Assembly (NCBI RefSeq): GCF_000014265.1
Contig: NC_008312.1
Span: 3,330,001-3,362,000 of the forward strand
DNA: 32,000 nucleotides
Reading direction: 5' to 3'
Source of the DNA: Trichodesmium erythraeum IMS101
GTDB lineage: Bacteria > Cyanobacteriota > Cyanobacteriia > Cyanobacteriales > Microcoleaceae
Positions within the stretch are counted from its first letter, which is position 1; every line of letters begins with the position of its first letter. The notes under the pieces are model-generated. The model was not told the origin of the DNA. It made no database searches and worked only from the letters and a program-made list of their open reading frames with translations. A program made the translations under genes and the position numbers. Of the stretch, positions 2 through 32,000 are shown piece after piece.

Positions 2-991
2 CAAAAGGAAGAGGTTCAAAAAAAAATAGTATCTGATTCTTTTTCGTTATCTGAAATAAACCCCAACCAAACGTTTAATATTATTGATGATAATGTTGTG
101 GAAAATCAGAAAAATCAGTGTCTTGATGATAATAATTATGTTTATTTGGCGATAGATTTAAAATTAGAAAGCACAAAAATTCAGAAAAATGATGCAGACA
201 AATTCCTGGTTAATACATGGTTGGCAATTCCTCAATCTTCTCAAAGTTTTTATCATAAAAATTTGTTAAATACTTTTGAATATAATCGAACTTATAGTCA
301 GGCAGAGGTTGAAGAAAAAATTATGAAACTAATTGCAGAATGTAATGAAGAATTAGCAAATATTTTCCCTCCAGAAAAAGATTGGGAGATTGCTATAGAA
401 TGGGTTCTTCCTAATAATTTATTATCTCTACCTGTTGACTGTTGGGAGTATCGAAAAAATGAAAGGATAGGACGTGGTAAATTTCTTTCTGTTCATATTC
501 GTTCATCTCAACGTTTACACATAGCTTATAAACATTATCATAAATCATGGAAAGATAAATGGAACTATCTTCAGGGAAACATACAAAATATTAATTTGGG
601 TAACTATATTTTAGCTTGCCAATGTCAAAATATTAATGATAATTATTTGAAAAATATTGATAATAAAAAGAAGATTCTGGGGATTAATTTCCCCTTCAAA
701 ATAGAAGAGTTAGAAAATATTACTTATGAGTTAATGATAGAAACAGGAATTCCTATAGCTTTGTGGTCTAGATGTAAAGAGTCTAATGTGAATCACCTTA
801 TAGATTTAGATACATTGATAAACCCCAATAATGAAAATGTTTTAAATCTACAAAATTTACCTGAATATGTGGAACAGAAGAGGTTAGACTCTCATTCAAA
901 TGACCCTCATCATTTAGGACATCATCTTTGCTTTTTATGTGAAAATCCTTATAATTATCCAATAAAAAGAAAATTAAATTTTGGGTATTAA
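2..991 (+). CDS. 3' part of a larger protein that runs off the left edge. The C-terminal region resembles a VMAP-C (vWA-MoxR-associated protein C-terminal) domain.
   Basis: Frame 2 is open from nt 2, with no stop before the GTG at 98 used by the ORF track. The stop TAA is at 989-991. The block IEWVLPNNLLSLPVDCWEY...GKFLSVHIRSSQRL recalls the LPxxLLxxPVxxW ... hhhRSxxR pattern I associate with VMAP-C. The gene lies directly upstream of a MoxR-type ATPase. The domain call is from memory and was not searched. Confidence 0.55.
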   Translation, partial: QKEEVQKKIVSDSFSLSEINPNQTFNIIDDNVVENQKNQCLDDNNYVYLAIDLKLESTKIQKNDADKFLVNTWLAIPQSSQSFYHKNLLNTFEYNRTYSQAEVEEKIMKLIAECNEELANIFPPEKDWEIAIEWVLPNNLLSLPVDCWEYRKNERIGRGKFLSVHIRSSQRLHIAYKHYHKSWKDKWNYLQGNIQNINLGNYILACQCQNINDNYLKNIDNKKKILGINFPFKIEELENITYELMIETGIPIALWSRCKESNVNHLIDLDTLINPNNENVLNLQNLPEYVEQKRLDSHSNDPHHLGHHLCFLCENPYNYPIKRKLNFGY

Positions 992-1034
992 TTTAGTACT
1001 GTTTATTAGCTGACCTTGTGGGAAAAATTAATGG

Positions 1035-1995
1035 ATTTGGTAGTAACATTTTATCAGTTTATTAATTTTGAAACCTGAAACATAACACCTGAGAAAAAAA
1101 AGAATGAATTTTGTTAATTCTTACACCTAATACCTAACACCTGAAACTTAAAATTTTAGAAAAAAGAAAAAATTTTGTTCCTTTTTAAACCTCAAACCTA
1201 AAGCCTAAAGCCTAAAAACTAAAGCCTAAAACCTAAAACCTAAAACCTAAAGCCTAAAACCTAAAACCTAAAACCTAAAACCTAAAACCTAAAGCCTAAA
1301 ACCTAAAACCTAAAGTAACACCTAAAACTCATGAGTAAAAAGAACAAATTTTGTTAATTTTTAAACCTAAAACCTAAAGCCTAAAACCTAAAACCTAAAA
1401 CCTAAAGCCTAAAACCTAAAACCTAAAGTAACACCTAAAACTCATGAGTAAAAAGAACAAATTTTGTTAATTTTTAAACCTAAAACCTAAAGCCTAAAAC
1501 CTAAAGCCTAAAACCTAAAACCTAAAACCTAAAACCTAAAACCTAAAGTAACACCTAAAACTCATGAGTAAAAAGAACAAATTTTGTTAATTTTTAAACC
1601 TAAAACCTAAAACCTAAAACCTAACACCTAAAACCCAATACCTAAAGCCTAAAACCTAACACCTAAAACCTAAAACCTAAAGCCTAAAACCTAAAACCTA
1701 AAGCCTAAAACCTAAAACCTAAAGTAACACCTAAAACTCATGAGTAAAAAGAACAAATTTTGTTAATTTTTAAACCTAAAACCTAAAGCCTAAAACCTAA
1801 TACCTAACACCTAAAACCTAAAGCCTAAAACCTAACACCTAAAACCTAAAGTAACACCTAAAACTCATGAGTAAAAAGAACAAATTTTGTTAATTTTTAA
1901 ACCTAAAACCTAAAGCCTAAAACCTAACACCTAACACCTAATACCTAAAGTCTAATACCTAAAACCTAAAACCTAACACCTAACACCTAAAACTT
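1035..1995 (+). repeat. Compound tandem repeat. Heptanucleotide arrays (consensus CCTAAAA, variants CCTAAAG/CCTAACA/CCTAATA) are organised into 5-7 higher-order units of about 113-176 bp.
   Basis: Direct reading. A 35-nt head ATTTGGTAGTAACATTTTATCAGTTTATTAATTTT (1035-1069) is followed by heptamer runs. The runs are interrupted by a conserved core CACCTAAAACTCATGAGTAAAAAGAACAAATTTTGTTAATTTTTAAACC, whose ATG falls at 1331, 1444, 1564, 1740 and 1867. Two degenerate cores lie near 1100 and 1170. The last unit merges into the real MoxR start at 1996. Confidence 0.95.
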
Positions 1996-2943
1996 ATGAG
2001 TAATTGGCAAATTTTTAAGGGAAATAATACACCTCATACTGTTAGTAAATGGCCGGAACCTCCCCCTTGGCGGAATTTTAATCAACAGCAGGAACCAAAG
2101 AATAATTTTCAAGCAAATGAGAAAGTTATTAACGCTGTTAATATGGCTATTTATTTACATCGCCCACTTTTGGTAACAGGAAAACCAGGAACCGGTAAAT
2201 CTAGTTTAGCGAGGGCGATCGCTTCGGAATTACAATTAGGAAAAGTCTTACATTGGCCAATTAATACCCGGAGTACTTTACAGGAGGGATTATATTATTA
2301 TGACGCGATCGCTCGTCTACAGGATGCTCAAATTAATCAACAGGAAAAAGATAAGTTTAATATTGGAAATTATATACGTTTAGGAGCTTTAGGAACTGCG
2401 ATGTGTTCTTCTGAAAAACCGAGGGTATTACTAATTGATGAAATTGATAAAAGTGACATTGATTTACCTAATGATTTACTCAATATTTTTGAGGATGGCT
2501 ATTTTATTATTAAAGAACTACAAAGATTGAAAAAATATCAGAATTCTCAAAAAATAAGTGTTGAAACTTATGATGGTAAGACTCATAAAGTTGAGGATGG
2601 AATGATAGCCTGCAAGAAATTTCCTATTGTAATAATGACGAGTAATGGAGAAAGAGAATTTCCTTTACCTTTTAAGCGTCGCTGTATTCAACTAGAAATT
2701 AATGAACCTAATATTGAGGAACTAACTAATATTATTAAAGCCCATTTAGGAGATGATTTAACTCAAGATATTGAAGCAAGAATTTCTGAGTTTGTGAAAA
2801 AAAGAGACAAGGGACCTTTGGCAACAGATCAATTACTTAATGTGGCATTTATGTTGATGAATAAGCCATTGCCTAATGCTGGGGAAAAAGAGGAAATAAT
2901 TCAACGTTTAATGGCATATCTCAACACAACTGGAGAAGAATAA
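1996..2943 (+). CDS. MoxR-like / AAA_5-type AAA+ ATPase
   Basis: 315-aa ORF with an ATG start. Walker A is GKPGTGKS, Walker B is VLLIDEIDKSD, sensor-1-like is IVIMTSN, and an Arg pair is FKRRC. Size and motif spacing are typical of MoxR/AAA_5 chaperone-like ATPases. A vWA-containing protein is encoded downstream. Confidence 0.85.
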   Translation: MSNWQIFKGNNTPHTVSKWPEPPPWRNFNQQQEPKNNFQANEKVINAVNMAIYLHRPLLVTGKPGTGKSSLARAIASELQLGKVLHWPINTRSTLQEGLYYYDAIARLQDAQINQQEKDKFNIGNYIRLGALGTAMCSSEKPRVLLIDEIDKSDIDLPNDLLNIFEDGYFIIKELQRLKKYQNSQKISVETYDGKTHKVEDGMIACKKFPIVIMTSNGEREFPLPFKRRCIQLEINEPNIEELTNIIKAHLGDDLTQDIEARISEFVKKRDKGPLATDQLLNVAFMLMNKPLPNAGEKEEIIQRLMAYLNTTGEE

Positions 2944-2954
2944 TAATTAAAATG

Positions 2955-3091
2955 ATAGCTTGTAGTATTGGGCTTAAGTTATTAGATAAAGTAGTTATAG
3001 AACAGCTCGCAGTAGATGGCTGCAGTTATTAGAAAAAGTAGTTATAAGATAGCTAGTAGTATTTTTTTTAGATATTAGAAAAACTAGTAGA
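2955..3091. repeat. About 2.5-3 copies of a ~47-bp direct repeat
   Basis: AGTTATTAGATAAAGTAGTTATAGAACAGCTCGCAGTAG (2977-3015) matches AGTTATTAGAAAAAGTAGTTATAAGATAGCTAGTAGTAT (3024-3062). Partial copies flank both. Read by eye. Confidence 0.6.
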
Positions 3092-3208
3092 GTTTTAGCC
3101 CGAAGATCCAGCATATTTCACCTGGATGAGGTTAAATTACTCCAAGTAATACACCTGTCTATTGTTGATAAATATTCTACAATTTATACAAAATAATGTT
3201 ATACTCTA

Positions 3209-3715
3209 ATGGCTGTTAAAATAGTGAATAATATGGTTTGTTACGTTAAAATAGATATTATTGAATCAGCGGAAGAACTAAAAGAAATATTATCTCGACA
3301 GACAGATATAAAGCTCAAGCAAAAAGTACAAGCATTATATTGGCTTAAAATAGGAGCAGTAAATACTATTGAAAATATATCAATATTATTAGGATGTCAT
3401 CGAACAACTGTATCACGATGGTTTAGTACATATAGAAAGTTGGGTATAGAAGGTTTATTGAAGAAGAAAAAAATTTTGGGTAGACCTAGAAAAATATCAC
3501 CTATGTTAGAAAAAAAACTTAGAGATGAGCTAAAAGATATAGAGAGTTTTAAGAGTTATAATGAAGTGCAAACATGGTTAAAAGCAATGTGGGATATTAA
3601 TCTGCCATACTCAACAGTACATCGGTATGTTTATTATAATTTAAATACTAAATTAAAAGGGTCACCTCCAATAAGTAGTCAACAAAATTCAACAGCAGTT
3701 GAGGACTCAAAATAA
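3209..3715 (+). pseudogene. IS630-family-like transposase remnant. Only the N-terminal HTH / winged-helix part is present, and no DDE domain follows.
   Basis: The residues ...ISILLGCHRTTVSRWFSTYRKLGIEGLLKKKKILGRPRKISP...YSTVHRYVYYNLNTKLKG resemble the orfA/HTH region of cyanobacterial IS630-type transposases (from memory). The ORF stops at 168 aa, and downstream frames are broken. No catalytic domain and no clear terminal inverted repeats were found. Confidence 0.55.
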
Positions 3716-5014
3716 AATATTTTAACTACTATCGAAGGTAATTGAAAAATTGAAAATAACGGGTAAGTAAATTTTGGAACAGAGTTAAGTTTTACCTAAC
3801 TATTTAACTATCAGCTATCAGCTATTGAATGCTTACCTAATTATTTATCTCTACTTTATATACTTACTAAATACTTAATAGGCTAAGTTTCTACTACAAA
3901 AAAAATTATTACTTATTTACTGTCAGGTTAGTTTTTCCTTCTATTGCCTACTAAATTATGTTTGAAAAATTCATAGCTTTTATAAAGACAAAAGAATGGC
4001 AACTTGATTCGATGCAAATAGCAGAAGTTTTATGGTTTGTGCACCAAGTTAGTGAACAAAAACAGGAAGAAAATAATTCTCAAAATTTAGTTTCAAGTAA
4101 TACGGAGGAGCTAGCTGAAAACTTTGATCAATCTTATGACTTTCAACTTTCAAAAACAGCTAGTATTCAACAACCAAAAAAAACGCCTACTAGGTCTTCG
4201 TCTTCTCAATATCCTTTAACTACTTCATCATCAAATAAATCTCAAAATACAGAAATTCAACCAACATCTTTGACTACTGAAAAATTGCCTATCAAATTAC
4301 CAGACATAGCAATTTTGCGTAATACTCTAGAATTAAGTCGCCTAAGTAGTCAACAAAATTCAACAGCAGTTGAGGACTCAAAATAAAATATTTTAACTAC
4401 TATCGAAGGTAATTGAAAAATTGAAAATAACGGGTAAGTAAATTTTGGAACAGAGTTAAGTTTTACCTAACTATTTAACTATCAGCTATCAGCTATTGAA
4501 TGCTTACCTAATTATTTATCTCTACTTTATATACTTACTAAATACTTAATAGGCTAAGTTTCTACTACAAAAAAAATTATTACTTATTTACTGTCAGGTT
4601 AGTTTTTCCTTCTATTGCCTACTAAATTATGTTTGAAAAATTCATAGCTTTTATAAAGACAAAAGAATGGCAACTTGATTCGATGCAAATAGCAGAGGTT
4701 TTATGGTTTGTGCACCAAGTTAGTGAACAAAAACAGGAAGAAAATAATTCTCAAAATTTAGTTTCAAGTAATACGGAGGAGCTAGCTGAAAACTTTGATC
4801 AATCTTATGACTTTCAACTTTCAAAAACAGCTAGTATTCAACAACCAAAAAAAACGCCTACTAGGTCTTCGTCTTCTCAATATCCTTTAACTACTTCATC
4901 ATCAAATAAATCTCAAAATACAGAAATTCAACCAACATCTTTGACTACTGAAAAATTGCCTATCAAATTACCAGACATAGCAATTTTGCGTAATACTCTA
5001 GAATTAAGTCGCCT
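3673..5014 (+). repeat. Perfect-register tandem duplication, 2 x 671 bp (copy 1 is 3673-4343, copy 2 is 4344-5014)
   Basis: By eye the two copies are identical apart from one substitution that I found (A at 4026 versus G at 4697, synonymous Glu). Each copy holds ~285 bp of IS-remnant/leader sequence plus the first ~386 nt of the large vWA gene. Confidence 0.95.
3958..4386 (+). pseudogene. Truncated duplicate of the N-terminus (about aa 1-129) of the 1911-aa vWA protein, fused to a 13-aa out-of-context tail. It may be expressed as a stand-alone N-terminal domain.
   Basis: Same leader, ATG and first 129 codons as the CDS at 4629. The reading frame then crosses the duplication junction (4343/4344) into IS-remnant sequence and ends with SSQQNSTAVEDSK*, the same tail as the ORF at 3209. 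Confidence 0.8.
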
Positions 5015-8000
5015 TATTAAACCCTTCAAACAAAAGGTAAACTCTCGAGTTGCTCAGGAATTAGATGTTAATGAAACTGCCAAAATAAGTGCAGAACTTA
5101 GTACCCTGAATTTTCCCCGTTATTTTCCAGTTTTAACTCCTAAAAAAGAACGTTGGTTAGATGTTGTTTTGCTCATAGAAGATAGTGATTCAATGATTCT
5201 TTGGCAGTCTTTATTGCCAGAAGTTAGAGATTTTCTAGAACATTTAGGAGCATTTCGAGATATCAAACTTTATCGCATAAAATGGGATAATAATTCAGAA
5301 AATTTACAAATTTATCCTTTTCATTCTCCTTCTCTGACTCTATCTCCTCAAGAATTAAATTCATCCGATCATAGACGGTTAATTTTGATGCTTAGTGATT
5401 GTATTTCCCTAGCTTGGATTAATCAGAAATTTATTAATATTCTTCAAAAATGGGCAACAAAAGAAAAGTTGACTATCCTCAATCCTTTTCCTGAAAGAAT
5501 GTGGGAAAATACAAATCTTTGTTATGCAATTAGACTGCGATTAGGAAATAATAAAAAGCAAAATTCGACTCAAAAATGGGATGCAATTCCTATTGAGTAT
5601 TGGCAAGAAAAATACCTTAATCAACAAACAGTTAAATTACCAATTCTAAATTTAGAACCAAAGTCAATGGCTGCTTGGGTTAATGTTATGGTAGGAAAAG
5701 GAATCAGTTGGTGTGCTGGTGCTGGGTTAGGTTTAGAATTGATGGGTCCAGAGCCAGAAGAAGAGGAAGAACCTCTCACTCCTAGAGAACAAATTAATAA
5801 TTTTTATGCCACTTTTTCCAAGGAAGCTTGGCAATTAATTCAATGGTTATCTGCTATTCCAATTAATCTTTCTACTATTCGTTTAATACAACGAGCTTTA
5901 TTACCAAAGTCGACTCAAATTAATGTCGCAGAAGTATTAATGGGAGGATTATTAAGTCCGGTTAAACCTTTTAATTCTTATCGTTTTCCTCATCAAATTG
6001 AGTTTGAATTTCAACCGGGAATTAGGGAGATATTTTTAGACCGTTTAGGAGGAAAAGAATTTTGTATTGGGGTTATTGGTCGTTTAACTGAAAAAATTGC
6101 TAGTCATTTTGGATATGAAACTATTCGAGAATTTGAAGCAATTCTATTAAATGAACCTTGGAATTTTCGGGATGATCAAGATATTAGATTAATTCACACT
6201 TTTGCGACTATATCTATCTCAACTCTTAGGCAATATGGAGATAAATATACTGATTATATTCCCAAGTTAGATAGAAGTCGCGCTCAGTTATATTTGATGT
6301 CTGAAGTTCCAGGAGAATCTATAAATTGGAGAGATTTTCTGGAAAAAGTCGCTCAAAAATATCGTTTAAGTTCTATTCAAAAAGAAATTTTAATTAATCT
6401 ATTTCCAAGTTCCCAAGAATTTCTTTCTATTTCTGAACTAGCTCAAAAACTTCTCAGTTCGGCTTCAGTTATTAAAGGTCGCTTAAATCATATTTTTCCT
6501 AAATTTGAAAGTAAAAATCCAGATTTATTTGCATCTCAAAAATATTCTCGACTAGAAGCTCTGCATTTATTTTTATCTTCTGAATATAAAAATTCATATA
6601 TTCCTCAAATTCTTGAAAATGATCAAATTGAGGAAAATTTACAAGACTTGAATTCTGAAGTTCCAGGAGAGTCTGTAAAATGGAGAGATTTTCTGGAAAA
6701 AGTCGCTCAAGAGTATGATTTAACTTCTATTCAAAAAGAAATTTTAATTAATCTATTTCCAAGTTCCCAAGAATTTCTTTCTATTTCTGAACTAGCTCAA
6801 AAACTTCTCAGTTCGGCTTCAGTTATTAAAGGTCGCTTAAATCATATTTTTCCTAAATTTGAAAATAAAAATCCAGATTTATTTGCATCTCAAAAATATT
6901 CTCGACTAGAAGCTCTGCATTTATTTTTATCTTCTGAATATGTAAATTCATATATTCCTCAAACTCTTGAAAATGATCAAATTGAGGAAAATTTACAAGA
7001 CTTGAATTCTGAAGTTCCAGGAGAGTCTGTAAAATGGAGAGATTTTCTGGAAAAAGTCGCTCAAGAGTATGATTTAACTTCTATTCAAAAAGAAATTTTA
7101 ATTAATCTATTTCCAAGTTCCCAAGAATTTCTTTCTATTTCTGAACTAGCTCAAAAACTTCTCAGTTCGGCTTCAGTTATTAAAGGTCGCTTAAATCATA
7201 TTTTTCCTAAATTTGAAAGTAAAAATCCAGATTTATTTGCATCTCAAAAATATTCTCGACTAGAAGCTCTGCATTTATTTTTATCTTCTGAATATAAAAA
7301 TTCATATATTCCTCAAATTCTTGAAAATGATCAAATTGAGGAAAATTTACAAGACTTGAATTCTGAAGTTCCAGGAGAGTCTGTAAAATGGAGAGATTTT
7401 CTGGAAAAAGTCGCTCAAGAGTATGATTTAACTTCTATTCAAAAAGAAATTTTAATTAATCTATTTCCAAGTTCCCAAGAATTTCTTTCTATTTCTGAAC
7501 TAGCTCAAAAACTTCTCAGTTCGGCTTCAGTTATTAAAGGTCGCTTAAATCATATTTTTCCTAAATTTGAAAATAAAAATCCAGATTTATTTGCATCTCA
7601 AAAATATTCTCGACTAGAAGCTCTGCATTTATTTTTATCTTCTGAATATGTAAATTCATATATTCCTCAAACTCTTGAAAATGATCAAATTGAGGAAAAT
7701 TTACAAGACTTGAATTCTGAAGTTCCAGGAGAGTCTGTAAAATGGAGAGATTTTCTGGAAAAAGTCGCTCAAGAGTATGATTTAACTTCTATTCAAAAAG
7801 AAATTTTAATTAATCTATTTCCAAGTTCCCAAGAATTTCTTTCTATTTCTGAACTAGCTCAAAAACTTCTCAGTTCGGCTTCAGTTATTAAAGGTCGCTT
7901 AAATCATATTTTTCCTAAATTTGAAAGTAAAAATCCAGATTTATTTGCATCTCAAAAATATTCTCGACTAGAAGCTCTGCATTTATTTTTATCTTCTGAA

Positions 8001-10364
8001 TATAAAAATTCATATATTCCTCAAATTCTTGAAAATGATCAAATTGAGGAAAATTTACAAGACTTGAATTCTGAAGTTCCAGGAGAGTCTGTAAAATGGA
8101 GAGATTTTCTGGAAAAAGTCGCTCAAAAATATCGTTTAAGTTCTAGTCAAAAAGAAATTTTAATTAATCTATTTCCAAGTTCCCAAGAATTTCTTTCTAT
8201 TTCTGAACTAGCTCAAAAACTGTCTCTTTCAACTTCAGCCATTAGGGGTCGCTTAACTAATATCTTTCGTAAATTTGAAAGTAAAAATCCAGATTTATTT
8301 GCATCTCAAAAATATTCTCGACTAGAAGCTCTGCATTTATTTTTATCTTCTGAATATAAAAATTCATATATTCCTCAAATTCTTGAAAATGATCAAATTG
8401 AGGAAAATTTACAAGACTTGAATTCTGAGGTTCCAGGAGAGTCTGTAAAATGGAGAGATTTTCTGGAAAAAGTCGCTCAAGAGTATGATTTAACTTCTAT
8501 TCAAAAAGAAATTTTAATTAATCTATTTCCAAGTTCCCAAGAATTTCTTTCTATTTCTCAAGCTGCTCAAAAACTGTCTCTTTCAACTTCAGCCATTAGG
8601 GGTCGCTTAACTAATATCTTTCGTAAATTTGAAAGTAAAAATCCAGATTTATTTGCATCTCAAAAATATTCTCGACTAGAAGCTCTGCATTTATTTTTAT
8701 CTTCTGAATATAAAAATTCATATATTCCTCAAATTCTTGAAAATGATCAAATTGAGGAAAATTTACAAGACTTGAATTCTGAAGTTCCAGGAGAGTCTGT
8801 AAAATGGAGAGATTTTCTGGAAAAAGTCGCTCAAGAGTATGATTTAAATTCTATTCAAAAAGAAATTTTAATTAATCTATTTCCAAGTTCCCAAGAATTT
8901 CTTTCTATTTCTGAACTAGCTCAAAAACTTCTCAGTTCGGCTTCAGTTATTAAAGGTCGCTTAAATCATATTTTTCCTAAATTTGAAAGTAAAAATCCAG
9001 ATTTATTTGCATCTCAAAAATATTCTCGACTAGAAGCTCTGCATTTATTTTTATCTTCTGAATATGTAAATTCATATATTCCTCAAATTCTTGAAAATGA
9101 TCAAATTGAGGAAAATTTACAAGACTTGAATTCTGAGGTTCCAGGAGAGTCTGTAAAATGGAGAGATTTTCTGGAAAAAGTCGCTCAAGAGTATGATTTA
9201 ACTTCTATTCAAAAAGAAATTTTAATTAATCTATTTCCAAGTTCCCAAGAATTTCTTTCTATTTCTCAAGCTGCTCAAAAACTGTCTCTTTCAACTTCAG
9301 CCATTAGGGGTCGCTTAACTAATATCTTTCGTAAATTTGAGAATAAAAACCCAGGGTTATTTGAATCTAGAAAAGGCTCTAAATTAGAAGCTCTACAGTC
9401 ATTTTTATTTTCTCAATATGTAAATTTAGATATTCCTCAAACTATTAAAAATAATCAGTTTCAAATTGGGGAAAAATTACAACATTGGAGTTTTAAAACC
9501 CCTACTGTTAACCGACGTGGAAATATTATCAACACCAGAACTTATACTGCTTCTTATTTCATCGAAATTCTTGGGCCTGATATTAATTTAGAAATGGTAG
9601 CTATCCCTGGTGGTACTTTTACCATGGGTTCTCCTGAAAGTGAAAAGTATAGCGAAGATAATGAACGGCCCCAACATCAGGTAACTGTTCCTTCCTTTTT
9701 TATGGGCAAATATCCAGTAACTCAAGGACAGTGGAAAGCGATCGCCTCTCGAACAGACATAAAAGTAGAAGGAGACCTAGACCCAGAGCCATCATATTTT
9801 AAAGAACCATACGAAAATATAGATAGATGGCACAGACCAGTGGAGCGGGTTAGTTGGAACCAAGCAGTAGAATTTTGTCAAAGACTATCAAAACTAACAG
9901 GAAGAAAGTACAGGTTGCCGAGTGAAGCAGAATGGGAATATGCTTGTCGTGCAGGAACGAGTACACCATTCTACTTTGGAGAAACCATAACACCTGAGTT
10001 AGCTAACTATGATGGGAAGTATACTTACAGCGATGGGCCAAAAGGAGAATATAGAGGGCAAACAACTCCTGTAGGTAAATTTCCACCAAATGCTTTTGGT
10101 TTATATGATATGCATGGAAACGTTCATGAATGGTGTGCTGACGACAGGCATGATAACTATGTAGGAGCTCCTACAGATGGAAGTGCTTGGATTAATAGTA
10201 ATACACATAGTGATACTAAAAGTAGAAAAATCCTTCGTAGCGGCTCCTGGTACGGCTATCCTTGGTGGTGTCGCTCTGGGGACCGCAACAGCTATTTCTC
10301 CGTCGAGGCGAACAACATCATTTTTGGTTTTCGTCTTGTGAGTGTCCCCCCCCAGGACTTTTGA
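4629..10364 (+). CDS. Giant multidomain protein. Order of parts: N-terminal alpha-helical domain, S/T/Q-rich linker, vWA-like domain, helical middle region, 9 tandem HTH modules, C-terminal FGE-sulfatase (SUMF1/C-type-lectin fold) domain.
   Basis: 1911-aa uninterrupted ORF. The vWA evidence is a MIDAS-like VVLLIEDSDSM (DSDSM at 5181-5195), then LILMLSDC and LTILNPFPERMW strands. The FGE-sulfatase evidence from ~9589 is GGTFTMGS, RPVERVSWNQAVEFCQRL, YRLPSEAEWEYACRAG, FGLYDMHGNVHEWC and RSGSW. Each repeat module contains a sigma70-region-4/LuxR-like HTH (LTSIQKEILINLF...LSISELAQKL..S.SVIKGRLNHIFPKF). Confidence 0.9.
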   Translation: MFEKFIAFIKTKEWQLDSMQIAEVLWFVHQVSEQKQEENNSQNLVSSNTEELAENFDQSYDFQLSKTASIQQPKKTPTRSSSSQYPLTTSSSNKSQNTEIQPTSLTTEKLPIKLPDIAILRNTLELSRLIKPFKQKVNSRVAQELDVNETAKISAELSTLNFPRYFPVLTPKKERWLDVVLLIEDSDSMILWQSLLPEVRDFLEHLGAFRDIKLYRIKWDNNSENLQIYPFHSPSLTLSPQELNSSDHRRLILMLSDCISLAWINQKFINILQKWATKEKLTILNPFPERMWENTNLCYAIRLRLGNNKKQNSTQKWDAIPIEYWQEKYLNQQTVKLPILNLEPKSMAAWVNVMVGKGISWCAGAGLGLELMGPEPEEEEEPLTPREQINNFYATFSKEAWQLIQWLSAIPINLSTIRLIQRALLPKSTQINVAEVLMGGLLSPVKPFNSYRFPHQIEFEFQPGIREIFLDRLGGKEFCIGVIGRLTEKIASHFGYETIREFEAILLNEPWNFRDDQDIRLIHTFATISISTLRQYGDKYTDYIPKLDRSRAQLYLMSEVPGESINWRDFLEKVAQKYRLSSIQKEILINLFPSSQEFLSISELAQKLLSSASVIKGRLNHIFPKFESKNPDLFASQKYSRLEALHLFLSSEYKNSYIPQILENDQIEENLQDLNSEVPGESVKWRDFLEKVAQEYDLTSIQKEILINLFPSSQEFLSISELAQKLLSSASVIKGRLNHIFPKFENKNPDLFASQKYSRLEALHLFLSSEYVNSYIPQTLENDQIEENLQDLNSEVPGESVKWRDFLEKVAQEYDLTSIQKEILINLFPSSQEFLSISELAQKLLSSASVIKGRLNHIFPKFESKNPDLFASQKYSRLEALHLFLSSEYKNSYIPQILENDQIEENLQDLNSEVPGESVKWRDFLEKVAQEYDLTSIQKEILINLFPSSQEFLSISELAQKLLSSASVIKGRLNHIFPKFENKNPDLFASQKYSRLEALHLFLSSEYVNSYIPQTLENDQIEENLQDLNSEVPGESVKWRDFLEKVAQEYDLTSIQKEILINLFPSSQEFLSISELAQKLLSSASVIKGRLNHIFPKFESKNPDLFASQKYSRLEALHLFLSSEYKNSYIPQILENDQIEENLQDLNSEVPGESVKWRDFLEKVAQKYRLSSSQKEILINLFPSSQEFLSISELAQKLSLSTSAIRGRLTNIFRKFESKNPDLFASQKYSRLEALHLFLSSEYKNSYIPQILENDQIEENLQDLNSEVPGESVKWRDFLEKVAQEYDLTSIQKEILINLFPSSQEFLSISQAAQKLSLSTSAIRGRLTNIFRKFESKNPDLFASQKYSRLEALHLFLSSEYKNSYIPQILENDQIEENLQDLNSEVPGESVKWRDFLEKVAQEYDLNSIQKEILINLFPSSQEFLSISELAQKLLSSASVIKGRLNHIFPKFESKNPDLFASQKYSRLEALHLFLSSEYVNSYIPQILENDQIEENLQDLNSEVPGESVKWRDFLEKVAQEYDLTSIQKEILINLFPSSQEFLSISQAAQKLSLSTSAIRGRLTNIFRKFENKNPGLFESRKGSKLEALQSFLFSQYVNLDIPQTIKNNQFQIGEKLQHWSFKTPTVNRRGNIINTRTYTASYFIEILGPDINLEMVAIPGGTFTMGSPESEKYSEDNERPQHQVTVPSFFMGKYPVTQGQWKAIASRTDIKVEGDLDPEPSYFKEPYENIDRWHRPVERVSWNQAVEFCQRLSKLTGRKYRLPSEAEWEYACRAGTSTPFYFGETITPELANYDGKYTYSDGPKGEYRGQTTPVGKFPPNAFGLYDMHGNVHEWCADDRHDNYVGAPTDGSAWINSNTHSDTKSRKILRSGSWYGYPWWCRSGDRNSYFSVEANNIIFGFRLVSVPPQDF
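6300..9485 (+). repeat. Nine in-frame tandem copies of a 354-bp (118-aa) coding unit
   Basis: Unit starts (TCTGAAGTTCCAGGAGA) fall at 6300, 6654, 7008, 7362, 7716, 8070, 8424, 8778 and 9132. Copies 2+3 and 4+5 form an apparently identical 708-bp super-repeat. Copies 6, 7 and 9 carry an alternative recognition-helix cassette (KLSLSTSAIRGRLTNIFRKF instead of KLLSSASVIKGRLNHIFPKF). Copy 9 diverges in its second half. Confidence 0.95.
10236..10361 (+). other. Candidate DGR variable region (VR) at the extreme C-terminus of the FGE-sulfatase domain
   Basis: It encodes RSGSWYGYPWWCRSGDRNSYFSVEANNIIFGFRLVSVPPQDF. This aligns with the RGGSW-NNN..N-CRSANRN-NN...-NNN-GFR(V/L)V layout of C-type-lectin-fold DGR targets (from memory). 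The segment is conspicuously A-poor (about 18 A in ~125 nt by hand count) and GC-rich within an AT-rich gene. It ends with a C8 run (10346-10353) just before the stop. Confidence 0.5.
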
Positions 10365-10469
10365 ATAGCCCTTTGCCCTCTTGCCCTCTTGCCCTATTTA
10401 GTCTCGCCAAAGGCTAGTCGAAATTTTTGAGCTTATGTAGTATTGTTGTAATATGTTGCGTGCTATATT

Positions 10470-10604
10470 CCAACTTAATAGAACAAAGGAGTCTGCTATA
10501 CAGAAATTTTCCTCAACAGAAAACCACAGTAAGGACGCCCTACATGCAAAGTCCCTACATGTAACCTCCCTACATTCCGAAAAAACTAATTATTCATTTC
10601 AAAC
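10470..10604 (+). repeat. Copy 1 of a ~120-135-nt dispersed/duplicated intergenic element
   Basis: Shares CCAACTTAA...ATACAGAAA..TCCT...AACCTCCCTA(C/A)ATTC(C/G)GAAAAAACTAATTATTCATTT(C/T)AAAC with 10865-10982. The last ~42 nt differ at 3 positions. Confidence 0.75.
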
Positions 10605-10864: not shown

Positions 10865-10982
10865 CCAACTTAACCCCGTAAAGAGGCCTCCCATACAGAA
10901 AAACTCCTGCATAGTAGACCTCTTTATAGATGTTCCATTTAACCTCCCTAAATTCGGAAAAAACTAATTATTCATTTTAAAC
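10865..10982 (+). repeat. Copy 2 of the ~120-135-nt element
   Basis: See copy 1. This copy overlaps the stop codon region of the minus-strand ORF that ends at 10972. Confidence 0.75.
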
Positions 10983-13974: not shown

Positions 13975-14047
13975 AGCCGGTGAGGAGACTCGAACTCCTG
14001 ACCGTTCGATTACAAGTCGAGTGCTCTACCAACTGAGCTACACCGGC
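13975..14047 (-). tRNA. tRNA-Thr (anticodon UGU), CCA not encoded
   Basis: The reverse complement is GCCGGTGTAGCTCAGTTGGTAGAGCACTCGACTTGTAATCGAACGGTCAGGAGTTCGAGTCTCCTCACCGGCT, which folds as a cloverleaf. The acceptor is GCCGGTG/CACCGGC, the D arm is GCTC/GAGC, the anticodon loop is CTTGTAA, and the T arm is AGGAG-TTCGAGT-CTCCT. Confidence 0.95.
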
Positions 14048-18502: not shown

Positions 18503-19204
18503 ATGATAGATAAAATACCTGAGTTTAAAAATCAAAAACTTCTTCAACAAGCTCTAACCCATCGTTCCTATTTAAACGAAAATTATGGAGATGAGGAAGA
18601 CAACGAAAGTCTAGAATTTATCGGCGATGCTTTACTAGGTTTCTTAGTAGGAGAATTGCTATATAGAAGATACAAAGAAGAGCATAATCTCAAACCCAAA
18701 GAACTTACTCGGATCCGTTCACTTTTAGTAGATGAAAAACAATTAGCAAAGTTCGCAGTTCAATTGGGAATTGGTGCAAAAATGCGCTTAGGTAAAGGTG
18801 CGGAAAAAGATGGTGGAAGGAAAAATCCAGCTTTACTAAGTGACACTTTTGAAGCAATAATTGGAGCCTATTTTTTGGACTCAAATTTAACGAAAGTTAA
18901 ACCTTTTATTAAAAGGCTTTTTGAACCTGTTGCAGATAATATAATTTTGCCTAATTATGGTGATAATTCACAACCAAAAGATTTAGTAGATACTAAGGGT
19001 AAATTTCAACAGTGGGCACTCGCAAAATTTGGAGAAAATCCTAGATATGAATCTAATAATGGAGAAGGTTTAGATCATGCTAAAATATTTACTGCGGAAG
19101 TTAGAGTTAGAGGAAAATTATATGGTGTTGGTAAAGGAAATCGTAAACAAGAAGCAGAAAAAAGTGCGGCAGAAAAAGCTCTGAAAAAAGTAGGGTTAAT
19201 TTGA
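18503..19204 (+). CDS. rnc: Ribonuclease III
   Basis: Contains LTHRSY, the signature ESLEFIGDALL, DTFEAIIGA, and a C-terminal dsRBD (KGKFQQWA...HAKIFTAEV...GKGNRKQEAEKSAAEKAL). Confidence 0.9.
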   Translation: MIDKIPEFKNQKLLQQALTHRSYLNENYGDEEDNESLEFIGDALLGFLVGELLYRRYKEEHNLKPKELTRIRSLLVDEKQLAKFAVQLGIGAKMRLGKGAEKDGGRKNPALLSDTFEAIIGAYFLDSNLTKVKPFIKRLFEPVADNIILPNYGDNSQPKDLVDTKGKFQQWALAKFGENPRYESNNGEGLDHAKIFTAEVRVRGKLYGVGKGNRKQEAEKSAAEKALKKVGLI

Positions 19205-19564
19205 TTGAATAAGGAAAAACTAATTTGGATAATTTCCTAGATTCATTTTTTTGAAGAGCTTAATTTTTTATTTGGGCAAGTCAGCCAATAAATTTTTATT
19301 TAAAAAGATTTAACTTAAAAAAAAGCTGATAACTCAATACTAATTGATATAAATAATTTTGAAATCTTAACTTTTGAGTTTCAACTTAAAATTACCAAAG
19401 AAATAAAGTTAATCTTTTACTCTTTCAACAGAATAAAAAAAACGAAATTTGGGATTTTTAGGTCTCCCTATTACTGGAAGTACTGTTGCCCTACGCGATA
19501 TGAAAAGCCCAGTTCCTCCTCCAGGAAGCTAACCAATAAATGATAATTGATACTGATAACTGAA

Positions 19565-21013
19565 ATGACGGATCAGCCAAGCTCCCGCAAAGAACTATAT
19601 GCTCGTATTCGCGAAATAGGCCGGGAAGAATTTCTCCTCGAAGAAATGACTCGCTATGGCTTTTGGCCAGAAGGTGAAGAAATGCCTCTAGACCCTGTCG
19701 ATGAAATTCAGCGTCGTGGGGAACTAGAACAACAACTGAAAAAACTTCGCCAAGAAAATGCCCACCTTTTTAACTTAAAGAAACTGGGTCAAGAAGCTTA
19801 CAAACAAAGATTAGTTGAGTCACGTCGCAAACAACAAGAAACTAAAGAACTTCGGGAAAGAGAAAGACAAGAACGCGCTAAAGCATGGCAAGAAAAAAAA
19901 GAAAATGACATTATTTATCTAGGGGAAGAGATATCTGGAGGACTGAATAATGTTGAAGGGAATATCTTTCGTCTCGAAATTTACAACCTCCCTATCCTTA
20001 ATACTGCCCAAGATATAGCTAATGCTATGGATATTACTGTGGGAGAACTTAGGTTTCTGGCATTTTCCCGCCCTACTTCTACAGTTTCCCACTACATCCG
20101 TTTCAAAATTCCTAAGAAAACAGGGGGAGAAAGGCAAATATCTGCTCCGATGCCACGTTTGAAAAATGTTCAAACTTGGATACTTGATAATATTCTCTGT
20201 AATGTTCCCCTCCATGAAGCAGTTCATGGTTTCCGTGCCGGACATTCTATTCTTACTAATGCTGAACCTCATGTGGCTAAAGATGTAATTATTAATTTTG
20301 ACCTAAAAAATTTTTTTCCCTCTATTTGTTACAAGCGTGTCAAAGGATTATTTTTTTCATTGGGTTACTCTGAAGCTGCTGCTACTATTTTTGCTCTTCT
20401 TTGTACTGAACCTAATGTCGTAGTAGTAGAGTTAGACGGACAGGTTTATTATGTAGCTCAGAGCGATCGCCACTTACCTCAAGGTTCTCCTGCTAGTCCA
20501 GCAATTACTAATATTATGTGTCGTCGCTTGGATAAACGTCTAAGTGAAATGGCAGCCAAACTTGATTTTGTTTATACTCGTTATGCTGATGACTTGACTT
20601 TTTCTAGTTCTGGAGATAGTCTCCGACACATTTGCAATGTTTTCCGACGTACTGAGTCTATTGTTAGTCATGAAGGGTTTACTGTAAATAGAGAAAAGAC
20701 CAGACTTCTTCGGGGCAAGTCTAGTCAACTTGAAGTTACTGGTGTTGTGGTGAATGAATTTCCGAATATTTCTCGCAAAGAGTTGAAGAGGTTTCGGGCA
20801 ACTTTATATCAGATAGAAAAGGACGGACCTCAAGGGAAAAGGTGGGGTCATAGTGATAATGTGATAGCTGCAATAGAAGGTTTTGCTAATTTTGTGGCGA
20901 TGGTCAACCCGGAAAAAGGTAGGGAGTTAGTGAGGCGGGTGAAACAAATTAAGGAAAAATATACTGGGAGAAGGAGGCGATCGACGAAAATTTTGGAGCA
21001 CGATGGTACTTAG
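19565..21013 (+). CDS. Retron-clade reverse transcriptase with a ~165-aa N-terminal coiled-coil extension
   Basis: RT motifs are IPKKTGGERQISAP, NFDLKNFFPSI, LPQGSPASPAITN and YTRYADDLTFS. Retron-type hallmarks are NAxxH (TNAEPH) and VTG (LEVTGVVVN). The N-terminus is rich in charged heptads (RRGELEQQLKKLRQEN...RKQQETKELRERERQERAKAW). The track start at 19547 is TTG, so I prefer the ATG at 19565. Confidence 0.88.
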   Translation: MTDQPSSRKELYARIREIGREEFLLEEMTRYGFWPEGEEMPLDPVDEIQRRGELEQQLKKLRQENAHLFNLKKLGQEAYKQRLVESRRKQQETKELRERERQERAKAWQEKKENDIIYLGEEISGGLNNVEGNIFRLEIYNLPILNTAQDIANAMDITVGELRFLAFSRPTSTVSHYIRFKIPKKTGGERQISAPMPRLKNVQTWILDNILCNVPLHEAVHGFRAGHSILTNAEPHVAKDVIINFDLKNFFPSICYKRVKGLFFSLGYSEAAATIFALLCTEPNVVVVELDGQVYYVAQSDRHLPQGSPASPAITNIMCRRLDKRLSEMAAKLDFVYTRYADDLTFSSSGDSLRHICNVFRRTESIVSHEGFTVNREKTRLLRGKSSQLEVTGVVVNEFPNISRKELKRFRATLYQIEKDGPQGKRWGHSDNVIAAIEGFANFVAMVNPEKGRELVRRVKQIKEKYTGRRRRSTKILEHDGT

Positions 21014-25871: not shown

Positions 25872-26336
25872 TTATCCCAAAAATTTAGTTAAATCAAATT
25901 CGGCTTCTGCCTGAGGTTTCTGATATCTTTCAGAAATTAAAACTAATAAAAGACGCTCTGAATAATTTACTGCACCTCGCAGTTCATCTTGTAATATTTC
26001 CAATCCCCCATTAGCATACTCTTCAAATATTTTAATCCGATTTTCCTCTATTTCTTCATTAGTTTGGGAGAGAATTTTTGTATCTCTTGTGTCGGCGATC
26101 GCAATTAATTTAATAATATTTTCATATCCCCTAGACCAAAACACCTCAATATTAATTGGCCCTGGTTCTCTTATAGAAATTTCTGTCACTGGAATTCGCT
26201 TTTTTTTCTTAATAGCTAAAGATGCAGCAAATACTATTACATCTGCATAGGTTTTAAATGGGCCTGTTTTTCCTTCTGATTCAGTTAAAGCTTTAACTAA
26301 ATCTGCTTTATCTTTAGCAATTCTAATTCTGTTCAT
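25872..26336 (-). CDS. Small protein, possibly related to the 'DNA phosphorothioation (Dnd) system-associated protein 4' family
   Basis: 154-aa ORF. The N-terminal R...KD....L....E...GPF.TYADVIVFAASL and the IFEEYANGGLEIL block resemble what I remember of that family. Memory-based only and needs an HMM search. Confidence 0.4.
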   Translation of the reverse strand: MNRIRIAKDKADLVKALTESEGKTGPFKTYADVIVFAASLAIKKKKRIPVTEISIREPGPINIEVFWSRGYENIIKLIAIADTRDTKILSQTNEEIEENRIKIFEEYANGGLEILQDELRGAVNYSERLLLVLISERYQKPQAEAEFDLTKFLG

Positions 26337-28816: not shown

Positions 28817-29025
28817 TGTCAGGTTTTAGGTATCAGGTGTCAGGTTTCAGGTGTTAGGTATTAGTTTTAAAAATCAATAAATTGATAGCATATTACTACC
28901 AAATATATTGATTTTAGCCCGTTAAATATCAATAACTTTTTACTTCAATTCACTTTCAATTATTTCTAATAACCTGAAACCTGAAATCACCAAACCTTAA
29001 ACATTAAACCTACTAAAACTTAATA
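28817..29025. repeat. Second member of the head-plus-heptamer repeat family, in inverted orientation with an opposing heptamer arm
   Basis: 28817-28866 is the GGT-strand array (CAGGTTTTAGGTATCAGGTGTCAGGTTTCAGGTGTTAGGTATTAG). The reverse complement of 28869-28903 is ATTTGGTAGTAATATGCTATCAATTTATTGATTTT, matching 30 of 35 nt of the head at 1035-1069. 28967-29020 carries ACCTGAAACCTGAAATCACCAAACCTTAAAC in the opposite orientation. Confidence 0.85.
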
Positions 29026-31132: not shown

Positions 31133-31374
31133 TGTACTGCTTCCTTAATAATTTTGAGAATATCATCATTAATTCGAGGAGTTTTTTTATAAAGCCTGTC
31201 TTTTTCTAGTTGTAATACTCGGCCAATGATATACTTTACTTCTGGAGGTGCAGTAGTAATTGGTTCTTGAATATTATTTAGCTTACTTTGACTTTGAGCA
31301 TTGTATGTTGAATGCTTCTCTGAAAAAATATTTGATATGTTTATGATTCCTTTGTCTGAGTATTTTGAAGTCAT
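31129..31374 (-). CDS. Small protein of unknown function, translationally coupled to the DndD-like ATPase
   Basis: Its stop TGA overlaps the ATPase ATG (ATGA overlap at 31129-31132). The track start is TTG at 31419, and the first ATG (MTSKYSDKG...) is at 31374. The C-terminal helix is PEVKYIIGRVLQLEKDRLYKKTPRINDDILKIIKEAV. Confidence 0.55.
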   Translation of the reverse strand: MTSKYSDKGIINISNIFSEKHSTYNAQSQSKLNNIQEPITTAPPEVKYIIGRVLQLEKDRLYKKTPRINDDILKIIKEAVQ

Positions 31375-32000
31375 TTGAATTTTAATAATAAGTAATACCT
31401 CATGTTCTTTATGTACCAAATTTTTATCAAAGATGGCTACATATCATGCTCAAAAACTAAATCACACAATTTTTTAAAATATTTAGTGTAGCCTAAGTTA
31501 GGAGTTATATATGTGTAGCAATATTCACAATAAAATTCCTTTCATTCTCACAAGCCTAACTGCAAAAATCACTACTTGTACACTACTACCCCTAAATTAA
31601 TGAAATTGGAATCATTATACTGGGTTGCTAAGTATTAGTGGTAAGTATTACAGCACTTTTCAGATTTATGAGCCATACCTTCATAACCAAAAGAAAATCC
31701 TGTAGAGGCATTTTCCTGTAGAATACTATGTAAACATATTGAACAAAAAAAGGGCCATTTACTCTTATTCAAATCTACTGAAATGAAAACTGCTGTATGT
31801 ATATAAGTGGTAGGTATTATGTACATTGTTTTCAACAACAAATTTGGCTAAGGTTAAGAAATAGTATTTATAGGGTTAATTTAATTGAATACATTCAAGT
31901 TTTGTTAACAGATTTTAATTTGTATTGGCATAAAAAAGCTGGCTTCCTAATATACTAAAATCTTAATTGTAAAATTTTAGTAGCGGGAAAAATCAGGTGA

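Follow-up and report, generated by a model that had tools for sequence, protein, structure and literature searches.

The window analysed here, a stretch of 32,000 nucleotides (nt) from Trichodesmium erythraeum IMS101 (contig NC_008312.1, positions 3,330,001 to 3,362,000 of the forward strand), carries toward its left end a set of genes that probably form a threat-sensing system built from a MoxR-type ATPase, a protein with a von Willebrand factor A (vWA)-like domain, and a third partner of the VMAP type. An initial annotation had described three open reading frames (ORFs) on the plus strand, at 2-991, 1996-2943 and 4629-10364, as such a system, and all three are present at these positions. The window is AT-rich (28-40% GC), and its proteins are 96-98% identical to proteins from Trichodesmium metagenome-assembled genomes (MAGs), as named at NCBI. 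The public contig L001 (GCA_018457135.1) matches the first 1100 nt of the window without a difference and adds approximately 8 kb leftwards. Read across both, the gene order, all on the plus strand, is a gene for a 300-amino acid (aa) CHAT partner (left of the window), CHAT–VMAP-C, MoxR AAA+ ATPase, and a gene for a protein in which the vWA-like domain is followed by nine putative helix-turn-helix (HTH) modules and an FGE-sulfatase (FGS) domain. The initial annotation mentioned neither the CHAT domain and the conserved 300-aa upstream gene nor, within the large protein, the array of nine HTH modules and the FGS domain at the C-terminus, which contains a variable region (VR). The features of the locus within the window are as follows.

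2-991, plus strand: last 330 codons of the CHAT–VMAP-C gene, open from the window edge to the stop codon, with the Pfam VMAP-C domain at approximately nt 200-949

992-1995, plus strand: VMAP-to-MoxR spacer of 1004 nt (TRF, repeat families)

1331-1893, plus strand: five copies of ATGAGTAAAAAGAACAAATTTTGTTAA, with starts at 1331, 1444, 1564, 1740 and 1867, one per higher-order repeat unit

1996-2943, plus strand: MoxR-type AAA+ ATPase of 315 aa (AAA_5 above threshold, bpMoxR near threshold, Walker A and B)

2957-3050, plus strand: two copies of a 47-nt unit with 77% identity, just downstream of the MoxR gene (repeat family D11)

3209-3715, plus strand: IS630-family transposase remnant, an intact 168-aa ORF (NCBIfam transpos_IS630, E 1e-14, profile positions 14-124 of 299; Pfam HTH_32 and HTH_23)

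3672-4342 and 4343-5013, plus strand: tandem duplication of a 671-nt unit, with one mismatch

3958-4386, plus strand: 142-aa ORF and thus a second duplicated gene start, made of a copy of the first 128 codons of the vWA gene and 14 codons from the duplicated IS630 tail (SAV_2336_NTERM at 2-109, E 6e-6)

4629-10364, plus strand: vWA–(LuxR-HTH)x9–FGS protein of 1911 aa

4680-6113, plus strand: SAV_2336-type N-terminal domain of that protein, aa 18-495 (NCBIfam SAV_2336_NTERM, E 1e-97)

6300-9485, plus strand: nine tandem units of 354 nt (118 aa), probably HTH modules of the LuxR/GerE type, with 83-97% nucleotide identity

9591-10340, plus strand: FGS domain of C-type-lectin (CLec) fold, aa 1655-1904 (Pfam, E 9.2e-55)

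10236-10325, plus strand: VR of the type made by diversity-generating retroelements (DGRs), the last approximately 90 nt or approximately 40 codons, GC-rich relative to the gene

10326-10430, plus strand: constant 3′ element of VR genes (ATTGGTTTTCGTCTTGTGAG..CCCCCCCAGGAC..stop..TAGCCCTTTGCCCT), with a weak inverted repeat and a T-run

The same three genes, in the order VMAP–MoxR–vWA, are found in Symploca (L008), in Crocosphaera (L036/L037), and on the Trichodesmium contigs L001, L007 and L039, the last from the MAG designated MAG_R01. In the relatives outside Trichodesmium the genes are tightly linked, as the initial annotation had described for systems of this kind. The gaps between them are listed below; the shorter of the Trichodesmium spacers come from short-read assemblies, which can collapse repeats.

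Symploca L008: VMAP to MoxR 181 nt, MoxR to vWA 6 nt

Crocosphaera L036/L037: VMAP to MoxR 53 nt, MoxR to vWA 5 nt

Trichodesmium MAG_R01 (L039): VMAP to MoxR 241 nt, MoxR to vWA 1014 nt

Trichodesmium L007: VMAP to MoxR 482 nt, MoxR to vWA 1014 nt

Trichodesmium L001: VMAP to MoxR 975 nt, MoxR to vWA 1685 nt

Window: VMAP to MoxR 1004 nt, MoxR to vWA 1685 nt

Pfam VMAP-C (PF20028) matches the ORF at 2-991 over essentially its entire profile (positions 2-226 of 226) with an E-value of 2.2e-20 and 74 bits against a cutoff of 27, and the full-length protein gives the same result, so that the reading of this ORF as a 5′-truncated gene with a VMAP-C tail stands. Extension leftwards through L001 recovers a full gene of 699 aa (L001 6926-9025) that begins 1110 nt left of the window and supplies the effector, a CHAT protease domain at the N-terminus (E 1.3e-16, on L001) in which the caspase-type motifs FHFIGHG and LQACEGG are kept. 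Between the window lineage and L007 (L001 6926-9025 versus L007 361-2460, strains 99% identical) this gene has accumulated 18 nonsynonymous and 0 synonymous codon differences (neutrality p ~0.01, simple binomial), which cluster in the CHAT domain at aa 158-351 and in the last 45 residues. Omega for the window lineage against MAG_R01 is 0.82. The protease thus appears to be fast-evolving; taken together with the constraint on MoxR and the vWA domain (below), this fits either a conflict gene or relaxed constraint, and not a dead operon.

The second ORF, at 1996-2943, had been read as a MoxR/AAA_5-type ATPase, and this assignment holds. AAA_5 scores 37 bits against a cutoff of 22, bpMoxR falls just below threshold (24.3 versus 27), a Walker A motif (GKPGTGKS) and a Walker B motif (LLIDEID) lie at aa 62 and 145, respectively, and the protein is orthologous to the ATPase of the Symploca and Crocosphaera operons; comparison with sequences in the PDB returned generic P-loop matches only. 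The N-terminus, MSNWQIFKG, corresponds to MSNWKIFRG in Symploca and MSDWQIFKG in Crocosphaera, and because it is conserved in these orthologues the ATG at 1996 is taken to be the genuine start codon. The MoxR ORF is intact in 8/8 assemblies, and CHAT–VMAP-C is intact in three. The ratio of nonsynonymous to synonymous substitution rates (dN/dS) for the MoxR gene is 0.30 against L007, and omega is 0.17 against MAG_R01; the corresponding values for the N-terminal domain of the vWA protein are 0.44 and 0.27. Both MoxR and the vWA domain appear from these comparisons to be under purifying selection.

The N-terminal 554 residues of the 1911-aa protein were modelled with AlphaFold from a 7-sequence alignment, revealing a disordered linker rich in Ser, Thr and Gln (aa 33-173), a vWA-like alpha/beta core (aa ~177-367, nt 5157-5729), and then a helical subdomain. 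Whereas Foldseek matches of the full-length N-terminal model are weak and mixed, a model of the core only (aa 165-380; pLDDT 79, pTM 0.78) retrieves vWA or vWA-fold structures almost exclusively among its top 50 matches in the PDB (best E 1.2e-3, range to 3e-2, probability 0.99, TM ~0.3-0.4). These include vWF A1, integrin I, CMG2/ANTXR, Ku80, MDN1-MIDAS and NorD, the last two being partners of MoxR-clade ATPases. In vWA domains the metal site is formed by acidic residues that end strands 1 and 4 (Kaur et al., 2020, PMC7159879). In the model, E184 ends strand 1 and D257 follows strand 4; the first is Glu in 5/7 and Asp in 2/7 family members, and the second, within the sequence SDC, is invariant. 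We accept the modelled core as vWA-like at the level of the fold.

The nine HTH units that follow are individually below Pfam thresholds, and the module has no Pfam family. A profile built from 11 sequences matches the LuxR-type regulators ChrA (E 2.9e-4) and VpsT (E 2.3e-3) and other C-terminal domains of the NarL/FixJ type, with S..S.I[KR]GRL..IF.KF in the alignment corresponding to iSe.TVK.H...i..Kl. Unit 2 equals unit 4 and unit 3 equals unit 5, which points to a recent duplication of a 708-nt block. Differences between units are mostly nonsynonymous and are clustered in one helix, giving the recognition-helix variants SSASVIKGRLNHIFPKF and LSTSAIRGRLTNIFRKF, and the linkers between units are acidic (…ENDQIEENLQDLN/SEVPGES…). 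The module is rare, with 10 clusters among 1.84 billion representatives. Elsewhere it occurs either as a single copy between vWA and FGS, in orthologues, or at the N-terminus of STAND NTPases of the NACHT, NB-ARC and nSTAND3 types (P0024, P0025, P0027, P0028). To judge from these architectures, it appears to be an output or adaptor module common to several conflict-type systems. Variation in HTH copy number between strains was considered and rejected as a firm claim, as megahit and MAG contigs can collapse such repeats.

The C-terminal FGS domain ends in a short region where the window departs from L007: differences from this contig, which is 99% identical elsewhere, pile up at 10236-10325. 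Across nine Trichodesmium VRs, the variable columns fall on codon positions 1 (16/34) and 2 (16/33) and rarely on position 3 (3/33), whereas in the 60 nt upstream of the VR variation is equal at all three positions. Between the window and L007, 19/19 differences in the VR are at codon positions 1-2 (chance p ~5e-4). This bias points indirectly to mutagenesis by a DGR, as it may represent the footprint of AAY codons in a template that was itself not seen. The constant frame and the 3′ untranslated element recur in seven paralogous FGS genes of Trichodesmium, and the segment at 10326-10430 is probably a homing region (similar to an initiation of mutagenic homing site) combined with a terminator; folding of the DNA past the VR yields no significant hairpin (z -1.1). 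Just past the stop codon, GCCCTCTT is repeated 3.6 times at 10368-10395, with fewer copies in other VR paralogs.

According to published work, approximately 80% of cyanobacterial VMAP systems are linked to DGRs, with FGS as the terminal domain of the vWA protein (PMC7159879), and the Trichodesmium DGR serves 12 dispersed targets (PMC4143802). A template repeat and a DGR reverse transcriptase (RT) located outside the window would fit this published arrangement. A degenerate VR pattern scanned over species-representative genomes matched VRs only (six in MAG_R02/R03, and a seventh found by blastn) and no template; the pattern began with GGCGGC where the window has AGCGGC, so that the genome of the window itself could not match, and there was no T. 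erythraeum contig among the matches. Symploca L008 has an Avd-like gene and another FGS gene after the three genes, which is a DGR context. The only RT gene in the window, at 19547-21013, was ruled out as the DGR enzyme, as it belongs to a type XIII retron (PADLOC E 4e-190).

With VMAP-C, AAA_5, SAV_2336_NTERM with a vWA-like fold, and the gene order of relatives all in place, we consider it likely that these genes make up a functional ternary system for conflict or threat sensing, of the VMAP type of MoxR–vWA systems and of the cyanobacterial subtype in which the vWA protein ends in a DGR-diversified FGS domain. The presence of VMAP-C and vWA-like domains and the adjacency of the three genes in relatives were the points on which the initial annotation had let its assignment depend, and on both the locus agrees with it; among the profile searches that it proposed, the VMAP-C, AAA_5 and FGE-sulfatase models match. 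Systems of this basic kind have been described before (Kaur et al., 2020), and the copy described here is a repeat-rich variant with three lineage-specific peculiarities: the nine-fold HTH array, spacers composed of duplicated gene starts and heptamers, and a non-canonical partner gene for the CHAT protease.

Several observations weigh against this assignment. No VWA model matches the protein at the sequence level, either in Pfam (E up to 10) or in a PDB profile search, so the vWA call is by fold and leans on weak structural scores obtained from a 7-sequence alignment. The putative metal-ion-dependent adhesion site (MIDAS) reads ExSxS (E184-D-S-D-S) rather than DxSxS, and its serines are unconserved in the family; of the earlier description of a MIDAS-bearing vWA-like domain, the fold is upheld and the MIDAS stands only in this modified form. 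The link to a DGR is drawn from the pattern of variation: a sensitive blastn search with the VR detects no template repeat elsewhere in the window, none is present in 8 related loci, there is no DGR RT in the window or the fetched loci, and at one VR position the window has G where all others have C, which may be a change at a non-adenine. Caspase-type VMAPs are described as "always" accompanied by an alpha/beta-hydrolase neighbour (Kaur et al., 2020, PMC7159879), yet no such domain is found in the genes called and scanned across ~7 kb upstream (on L001) and ~20 kb downstream (in the window), and the expected neighbour is replaced by the 300-aa protein, which has no detectable family. A scan of both spacers for promoters and terminators gave counts equal to the shuffled expectation. 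The exact 1911-aa protein is not on public record, so that the count of nine units comes from this assembly only. Finally, a literature search returned nothing experimental for the VMAP type. The initial statement that these systems are experimentally uncharacterised agrees with this for the VMAP type, with the qualification that a 2026 preprint (10.64898/2026.09.08.750141) reports, for a related MoxR–vWA–beta-propeller pathway, the first genetic evidence of threat sensing and transcription.

The partner gene lies 55 nt upstream of CHAT–VMAP-C, ~2.1 kb left of the window (L001 5969-6871, plus strand). Its 300-aa product belongs to a family that is strongly conserved in cyanobacteria (177 clusters at E <=0.001), with 46-93% identity across Microcoleus, Symploca, Coleofasciculus, Nostocales and Okeania. 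In all contexts checked (Coleofasciculus, Microcoleus, a metagenome contig, and L001) the next gene downstream encodes a CHAT protein whose C-terminal half varies by context, being absent, SIR2_2 or, as here, VMAP-C. A metagenome scan with CHAT–VMAP-C returned only four distant loci, which show the cassette of partner and CHAT with a SIR2_2 C-terminus and are of no use for population genetics. The protein has no match in Pfam, NCBIfam, PADLOC or the PDB, either alone or as a 21-sequence profile. Identities as a gasdermin-like protein and as an alpha/beta-hydrolase were each considered, and neither is supported by any evidence. The 300-aa protein is a candidate substrate or partner of the protease, and the conserved two-gene cassette, in which the CHAT protease carries an exchangeable C-terminal domain, suggests a testable protease–substrate pair.

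The first spacer was described initially as a 1.0-kb heptamer array, and sequence comparison bears this out: of its 1004 nt, positions 1187-1993 are occupied by ~115 copies of AAACCTA in an array that abuts the MoxR start codon. A probe of 2.5 heptamer units yields 65 matches versus 0.04 expected by chance. The array is built of higher-order units of 113-176 nt, and two old, diverged units are found at 1066-1217. Each higher-order core contains one copy of ATGAGTAAAAAGAACAAATTTTGTTAA preceded by CCTAAAACTC, in imitation of the start context of the MoxR gene, CCTAAAACT[C/T]ATGAGTAA, and each of these decoys opens an 8-codon mini-ORF, MSKKNKFC*. In MAG_R01 the genuine MoxR start reads AAAACTCATGAGTA, which matches the decoys over the 14 nt read. 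Because the decoys copy the MoxR start context, the array appears to have grown by repeated tandem duplication of a segment that includes the first codons of the gene, and heptamer slippage contributed to this growth. The number of core units is five in the window, four in L001 and one in L007. We infer that the array probably modulates expression of the MoxR gene, a regulatory role that the initial annotation had also entertained. A short array of the same heptamer family occurs on the opposite strand at 28817-28861 (TCAGGTA/TTAGGTA, reverse complement TACCTGA/TACCTAA), and related heptamers are therefore dispersed in the genome and not confined to the MoxR spacer.

The second spacer (2944-4628, 1685 nt) holds, as described initially, an IS630 remnant and a tandem duplication. 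The remnant retains only the HTH part of the transposase: there is no DDE domain and no downstream transposase ORF or DDE remnant. An HTH-only ORF is found at the same site in L002-L004, L007 and L039, and L005 and L006 end inside it, so that the insertion appears to be old, being common to all Trichodesmium lineages examined. In two strain comparisons this ORF shows 0 nonsynonymous and 1-2 synonymous differences, too few to separate domestication from recency. The 671-nt unit covers the tail of the IS630 ORF, the region upstream of the vWA gene, and the first 385 nt of that gene; its duplication is present in L001-L004 and absent from L007 and L039. On this distribution, the IS630 insertion appears to predate both the 671-nt duplication and the greater part of the growth of the heptamer array. 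In Crocosphaera, the vWA–HTH protein (L036 6438-9364) stops right after its single HTH module, without FGS, and an intact IS630 transposase gene (290 aa, DDE domain) lies 15 nt downstream on the opposite strand, at the place expected for FGS. IS630 elements have thus struck this vWA gene family more than once.

These features raise the question, left between two answers by the initial annotation, of whether the locus is being remodelled or is decaying. If it were a relic, the operon would have been broken by IS630 and runaway repeats, and its genes, no longer co-expressed or functional, would be on their way to becoming pseudogenes. The width of the gaps (1004 and 1685 nt versus 53-181 and 5-6 nt in relatives), the IS630 remnant, the truncated duplicate ORF, and the loss of FGS beside an intact IS630 in Crocosphaera would be understandable on these terms; the dN/dS of ~0.8 or more for CHAT–VMAP could mean relaxed constraint, and the DGR RT is pseudogenised in cultured T. 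erythraeum (PMC4143802). Yet four ORFs are intact, including one of 5.7 kb that runs through 3.2 kb of repeats, and independent assemblies likewise have them unbroken; CHAT retains its catalytic motifs, and MoxR and vWA appear to be under purifying selection (values of 0.17-0.44); the VR has been rewritten after strain divergence, with all 19 changes at codon positions 1-2; and the IS630 insertion is common to lineages ~4% apart in which the genes are still intact. Since the genes are intact across strains and the VR is rewritten between strains that are 99% identical, remodelling is supported and decay is disfavoured; we regard the latter as distinctly improbable. In the scenario that we prefer, the genes were probably spread apart by tandem duplications, specific to this lineage, of units in four size classes (7 nt, 113-176 nt, 354/708 nt and 671 nt), and the old IS630 insertion, common to the Trichodesmium lineages examined, adds to the distance.

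A different concern is that the repeat features themselves (array length, the 671-nt duplication and the nine HTH units) could be assembly artefacts, in whole or in part. Short-read assemblies break at repeats and possibly collapse them, and contigs L002-L006 begin at the end of the array; the single HTH unit of P0002 resembles a graph shortcut from the first to the last unit of a longer array; and, as noted, the exact 1911-aa product is missing from public records. Nevertheless, the heptamer array with its core units occurs in three independent assemblies (L001, L007 and the window), and the 671-nt duplication occurs in L001-L004, which derive from different samples. P0001, from a different MAG, has at least three HTH units before its contig ends, and multi-copy HTH arrays are therefore not unique to the window assembly. 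Within the window, the reading frame is kept through nine units, whose differences are structured and mosaic. We therefore hold an origin by misassembly to be highly improbable.

For a remodelled and functional locus, a mechanism can be proposed by combining the published models for such systems. In a proposal for related loci, the vWA-CLec protein acts as the sensor and the VMAP protein carries the effector (Doré et al., 2024, PMC10907252), and this direction of signalling is adopted here. The hypervariable lectin tip would bind an invader-derived or other non-self ligand (after Kaur et al., 2020; Doré et al., 2024), and the signal would pass via the vWA domain to the MoxR ATPase, which would serve as an ATP-dependent threshold switch. 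VMAP-C would dock the CHAT protease to the MoxR–vWA pair, so that the activated protease could cleave its substrates, perhaps the neighbouring 300-aa protein, the sensor linkers, or both. The putative LuxR-type HTH modules probably represent the output or adaptor part, because in the NACHT and NB-ARC STAND NTPases they are N-terminal, in the place of effector or adaptor domains.

The nine putative LuxR-type HTH modules might instead indicate a DGR-tuned signal transduction pathway with a transcriptional output, one that is not directed at invaders but that, on sensing self or environmental ligands, might steer the behaviour of colonies or programmed cell death. "Regulatory pathway tuning" by DGRs has been discussed previously (Vallota-Eastman et al., 2020, PMC7517822), the DGR targets of cyanobacteria are mostly proteins with signalling domains (PMC7517822), and the related Esr MoxR–vWA pathway drives transcription of defensive genes (10.64898/2026.09.08.750141). 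A passage of PMC7517822 also cites caspase-linked cell death as known in Trichodesmium. The locus, however, lies among defence genes (a retron type XIII RT, a PbeC/DndD-like gene and a dnd-associated gene), and its protease evolves fast, as is typical of conflict genes. We consider a purely non-immune role unlikely, and the two views are compatible in that a threat sensor can have a transcriptional output.

A further way to account for the repeats would be to regard the HTH array of the protein and the heptamer/113-176-nt array of the DNA as a matched pair. NarL-type HTH proteins recognise 7-nt sites. The sensor would bind the array 5′ of MoxR, for autoregulation or tethering, and CHAT would cut the acidic linkers to free HTH units as an amplified output. 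Protein modules and DNA units would then be expected to multiply together within a lineage. As leads, HTH units and DNA core units number 9 and 5 in the window and 1 and 1 in L007, for which assembly collapse could be the explanation, and the Crocosphaera orthologue, with one HTH unit, lacks the heptamer array. We regard this as a long shot.

The functional threat-sensing system favoured above corresponds most closely to the FGS/DGR subtype of VMAP ternary systems (Kaur, Burroughs, Iyer and Aravind, 2020, eLife 9:e52696, PMC7159879). VMAP-C, MoxR and vWA occur in the same order; a peptidase forms the N-terminus of the VMAP protein, FGS stands last in the vWA protein ("strict architectural syntax") and is hypervariable in the manner of DGR targets; and the host is a filamentous, colony-forming cyanobacterium. 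The locus departs from that description in its gaps of 1.0 and 1.7 kb in place of abutting genes, in the nine HTH modules between vWA and FGS, in the 300-aa neighbour that is not recognisable as an alpha/beta hydrolase, in having Glu as the first MIDAS residue, and in the lack of a DGR template or RT nearby. Compared with the DGR of T. erythraeum IMS101, which has 12 targets (Pfreundt et al., 2014, PMC4143802), and with the "remote variable proteins" (PMC7517822), it shares a C-terminal VR within a CLec/FGS domain, a 3′ stretch common to paralogous targets, a target far from the RT, and transposases, which often adjoin such genes; the template repeat for the VR of the window was not recovered here.

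The Thiohalocapsa PB-PSB1 loci DGR4/5/7 (Doré et al., 2024, PMC10907252) likewise combine MoxR, a vWA-CLec target and a VMAP or peptidase in one locus, with insertion sequence debris and short-repeat arrays that have entered the locus or taken the place of some of its segments, and with structural variants between close strains. Their host, in contrast, is a gammaproteobacterium, their repeats are hairpins like those of miniature inverted-repeat transposable elements rather than heptamers with decoy starts, and the domain in tandem is CLec rather than HTH. The Esr MoxR–vWA–beta-propeller pathway of oral Actinobacteria (bioRxiv 10.64898/2026.09.08.750141), the sole experimental support that we found for the super-family, resembles the present system in coupling a sequence-divergent sensor through MoxR–vWA to a response that includes transcription of defensive genes. 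It differs in its third component, a surface beta-propeller filament, in an output via a kinase and an FHA protein, and in having no DGR, CHAT or FGS. For the heptamer array, the promoter repeats of Haemophilus influenzae hmw1A/hmw2A (PMC8262952, PMC12721329) provide a parallel, as they also form a 7-nt array directly upstream of a gene, with a copy number that varies between close strains. Copy number has been shown to tune expression in Haemophilus, whereas the array described here, known from sequence only, is ~10x longer and is organised in higher-order units with decoy starts.

Of the immune-like systems predicted in prokaryotes that still await experimental characterisation, VMAP ternary systems are some of the largest, and they are a main class of cellular DGR targets. 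The present locus constitutes a natural series within a nitrogen fixer of ecological importance, in which strains appear to vary in the sensor tip, in the number of HTH modules and in array length. If long reads confirm the copy-number differences, this series could be used to ask whether module number tunes output, and whether arrays resembling microsatellites adjust, in the manner of a rheostat, how strongly a costly suicide or immune system is expressed.

Farther along the window, the setting resembles a defence island, with a retron type XIII RT, a PbeC/DndD-like ATPase and a dnd-associated gene. The remaining features are as follows.

13975-14047, minus strand: tRNA gene, the sole Rfam match in the window

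19547-21013, plus strand: retron RT of 488 aa (PADLOC retron RT type XIII, E 4e-190; NCBIfam retron families)

25872-26336, minus strand: DNA-phosphorothioation-associated protein 4 (TIGR04062, E 5e-64)

29060-31132, minus strand: PbeC/DndD-like SMC-type ATPase (PADLOC PbeC, full length, E 0)

31129-31419, minus strand: 96-aa ORF overlapping the PbeC/DndD-like gene

An RNase III gene at 18503-19204 lies just upstream of the retron RT gene. Closer to the locus, a 47-nt direct repeat with 91% identity (10538-10604 and 10936-10982) flanks the intergenic region at 10.6-10.9 kb.

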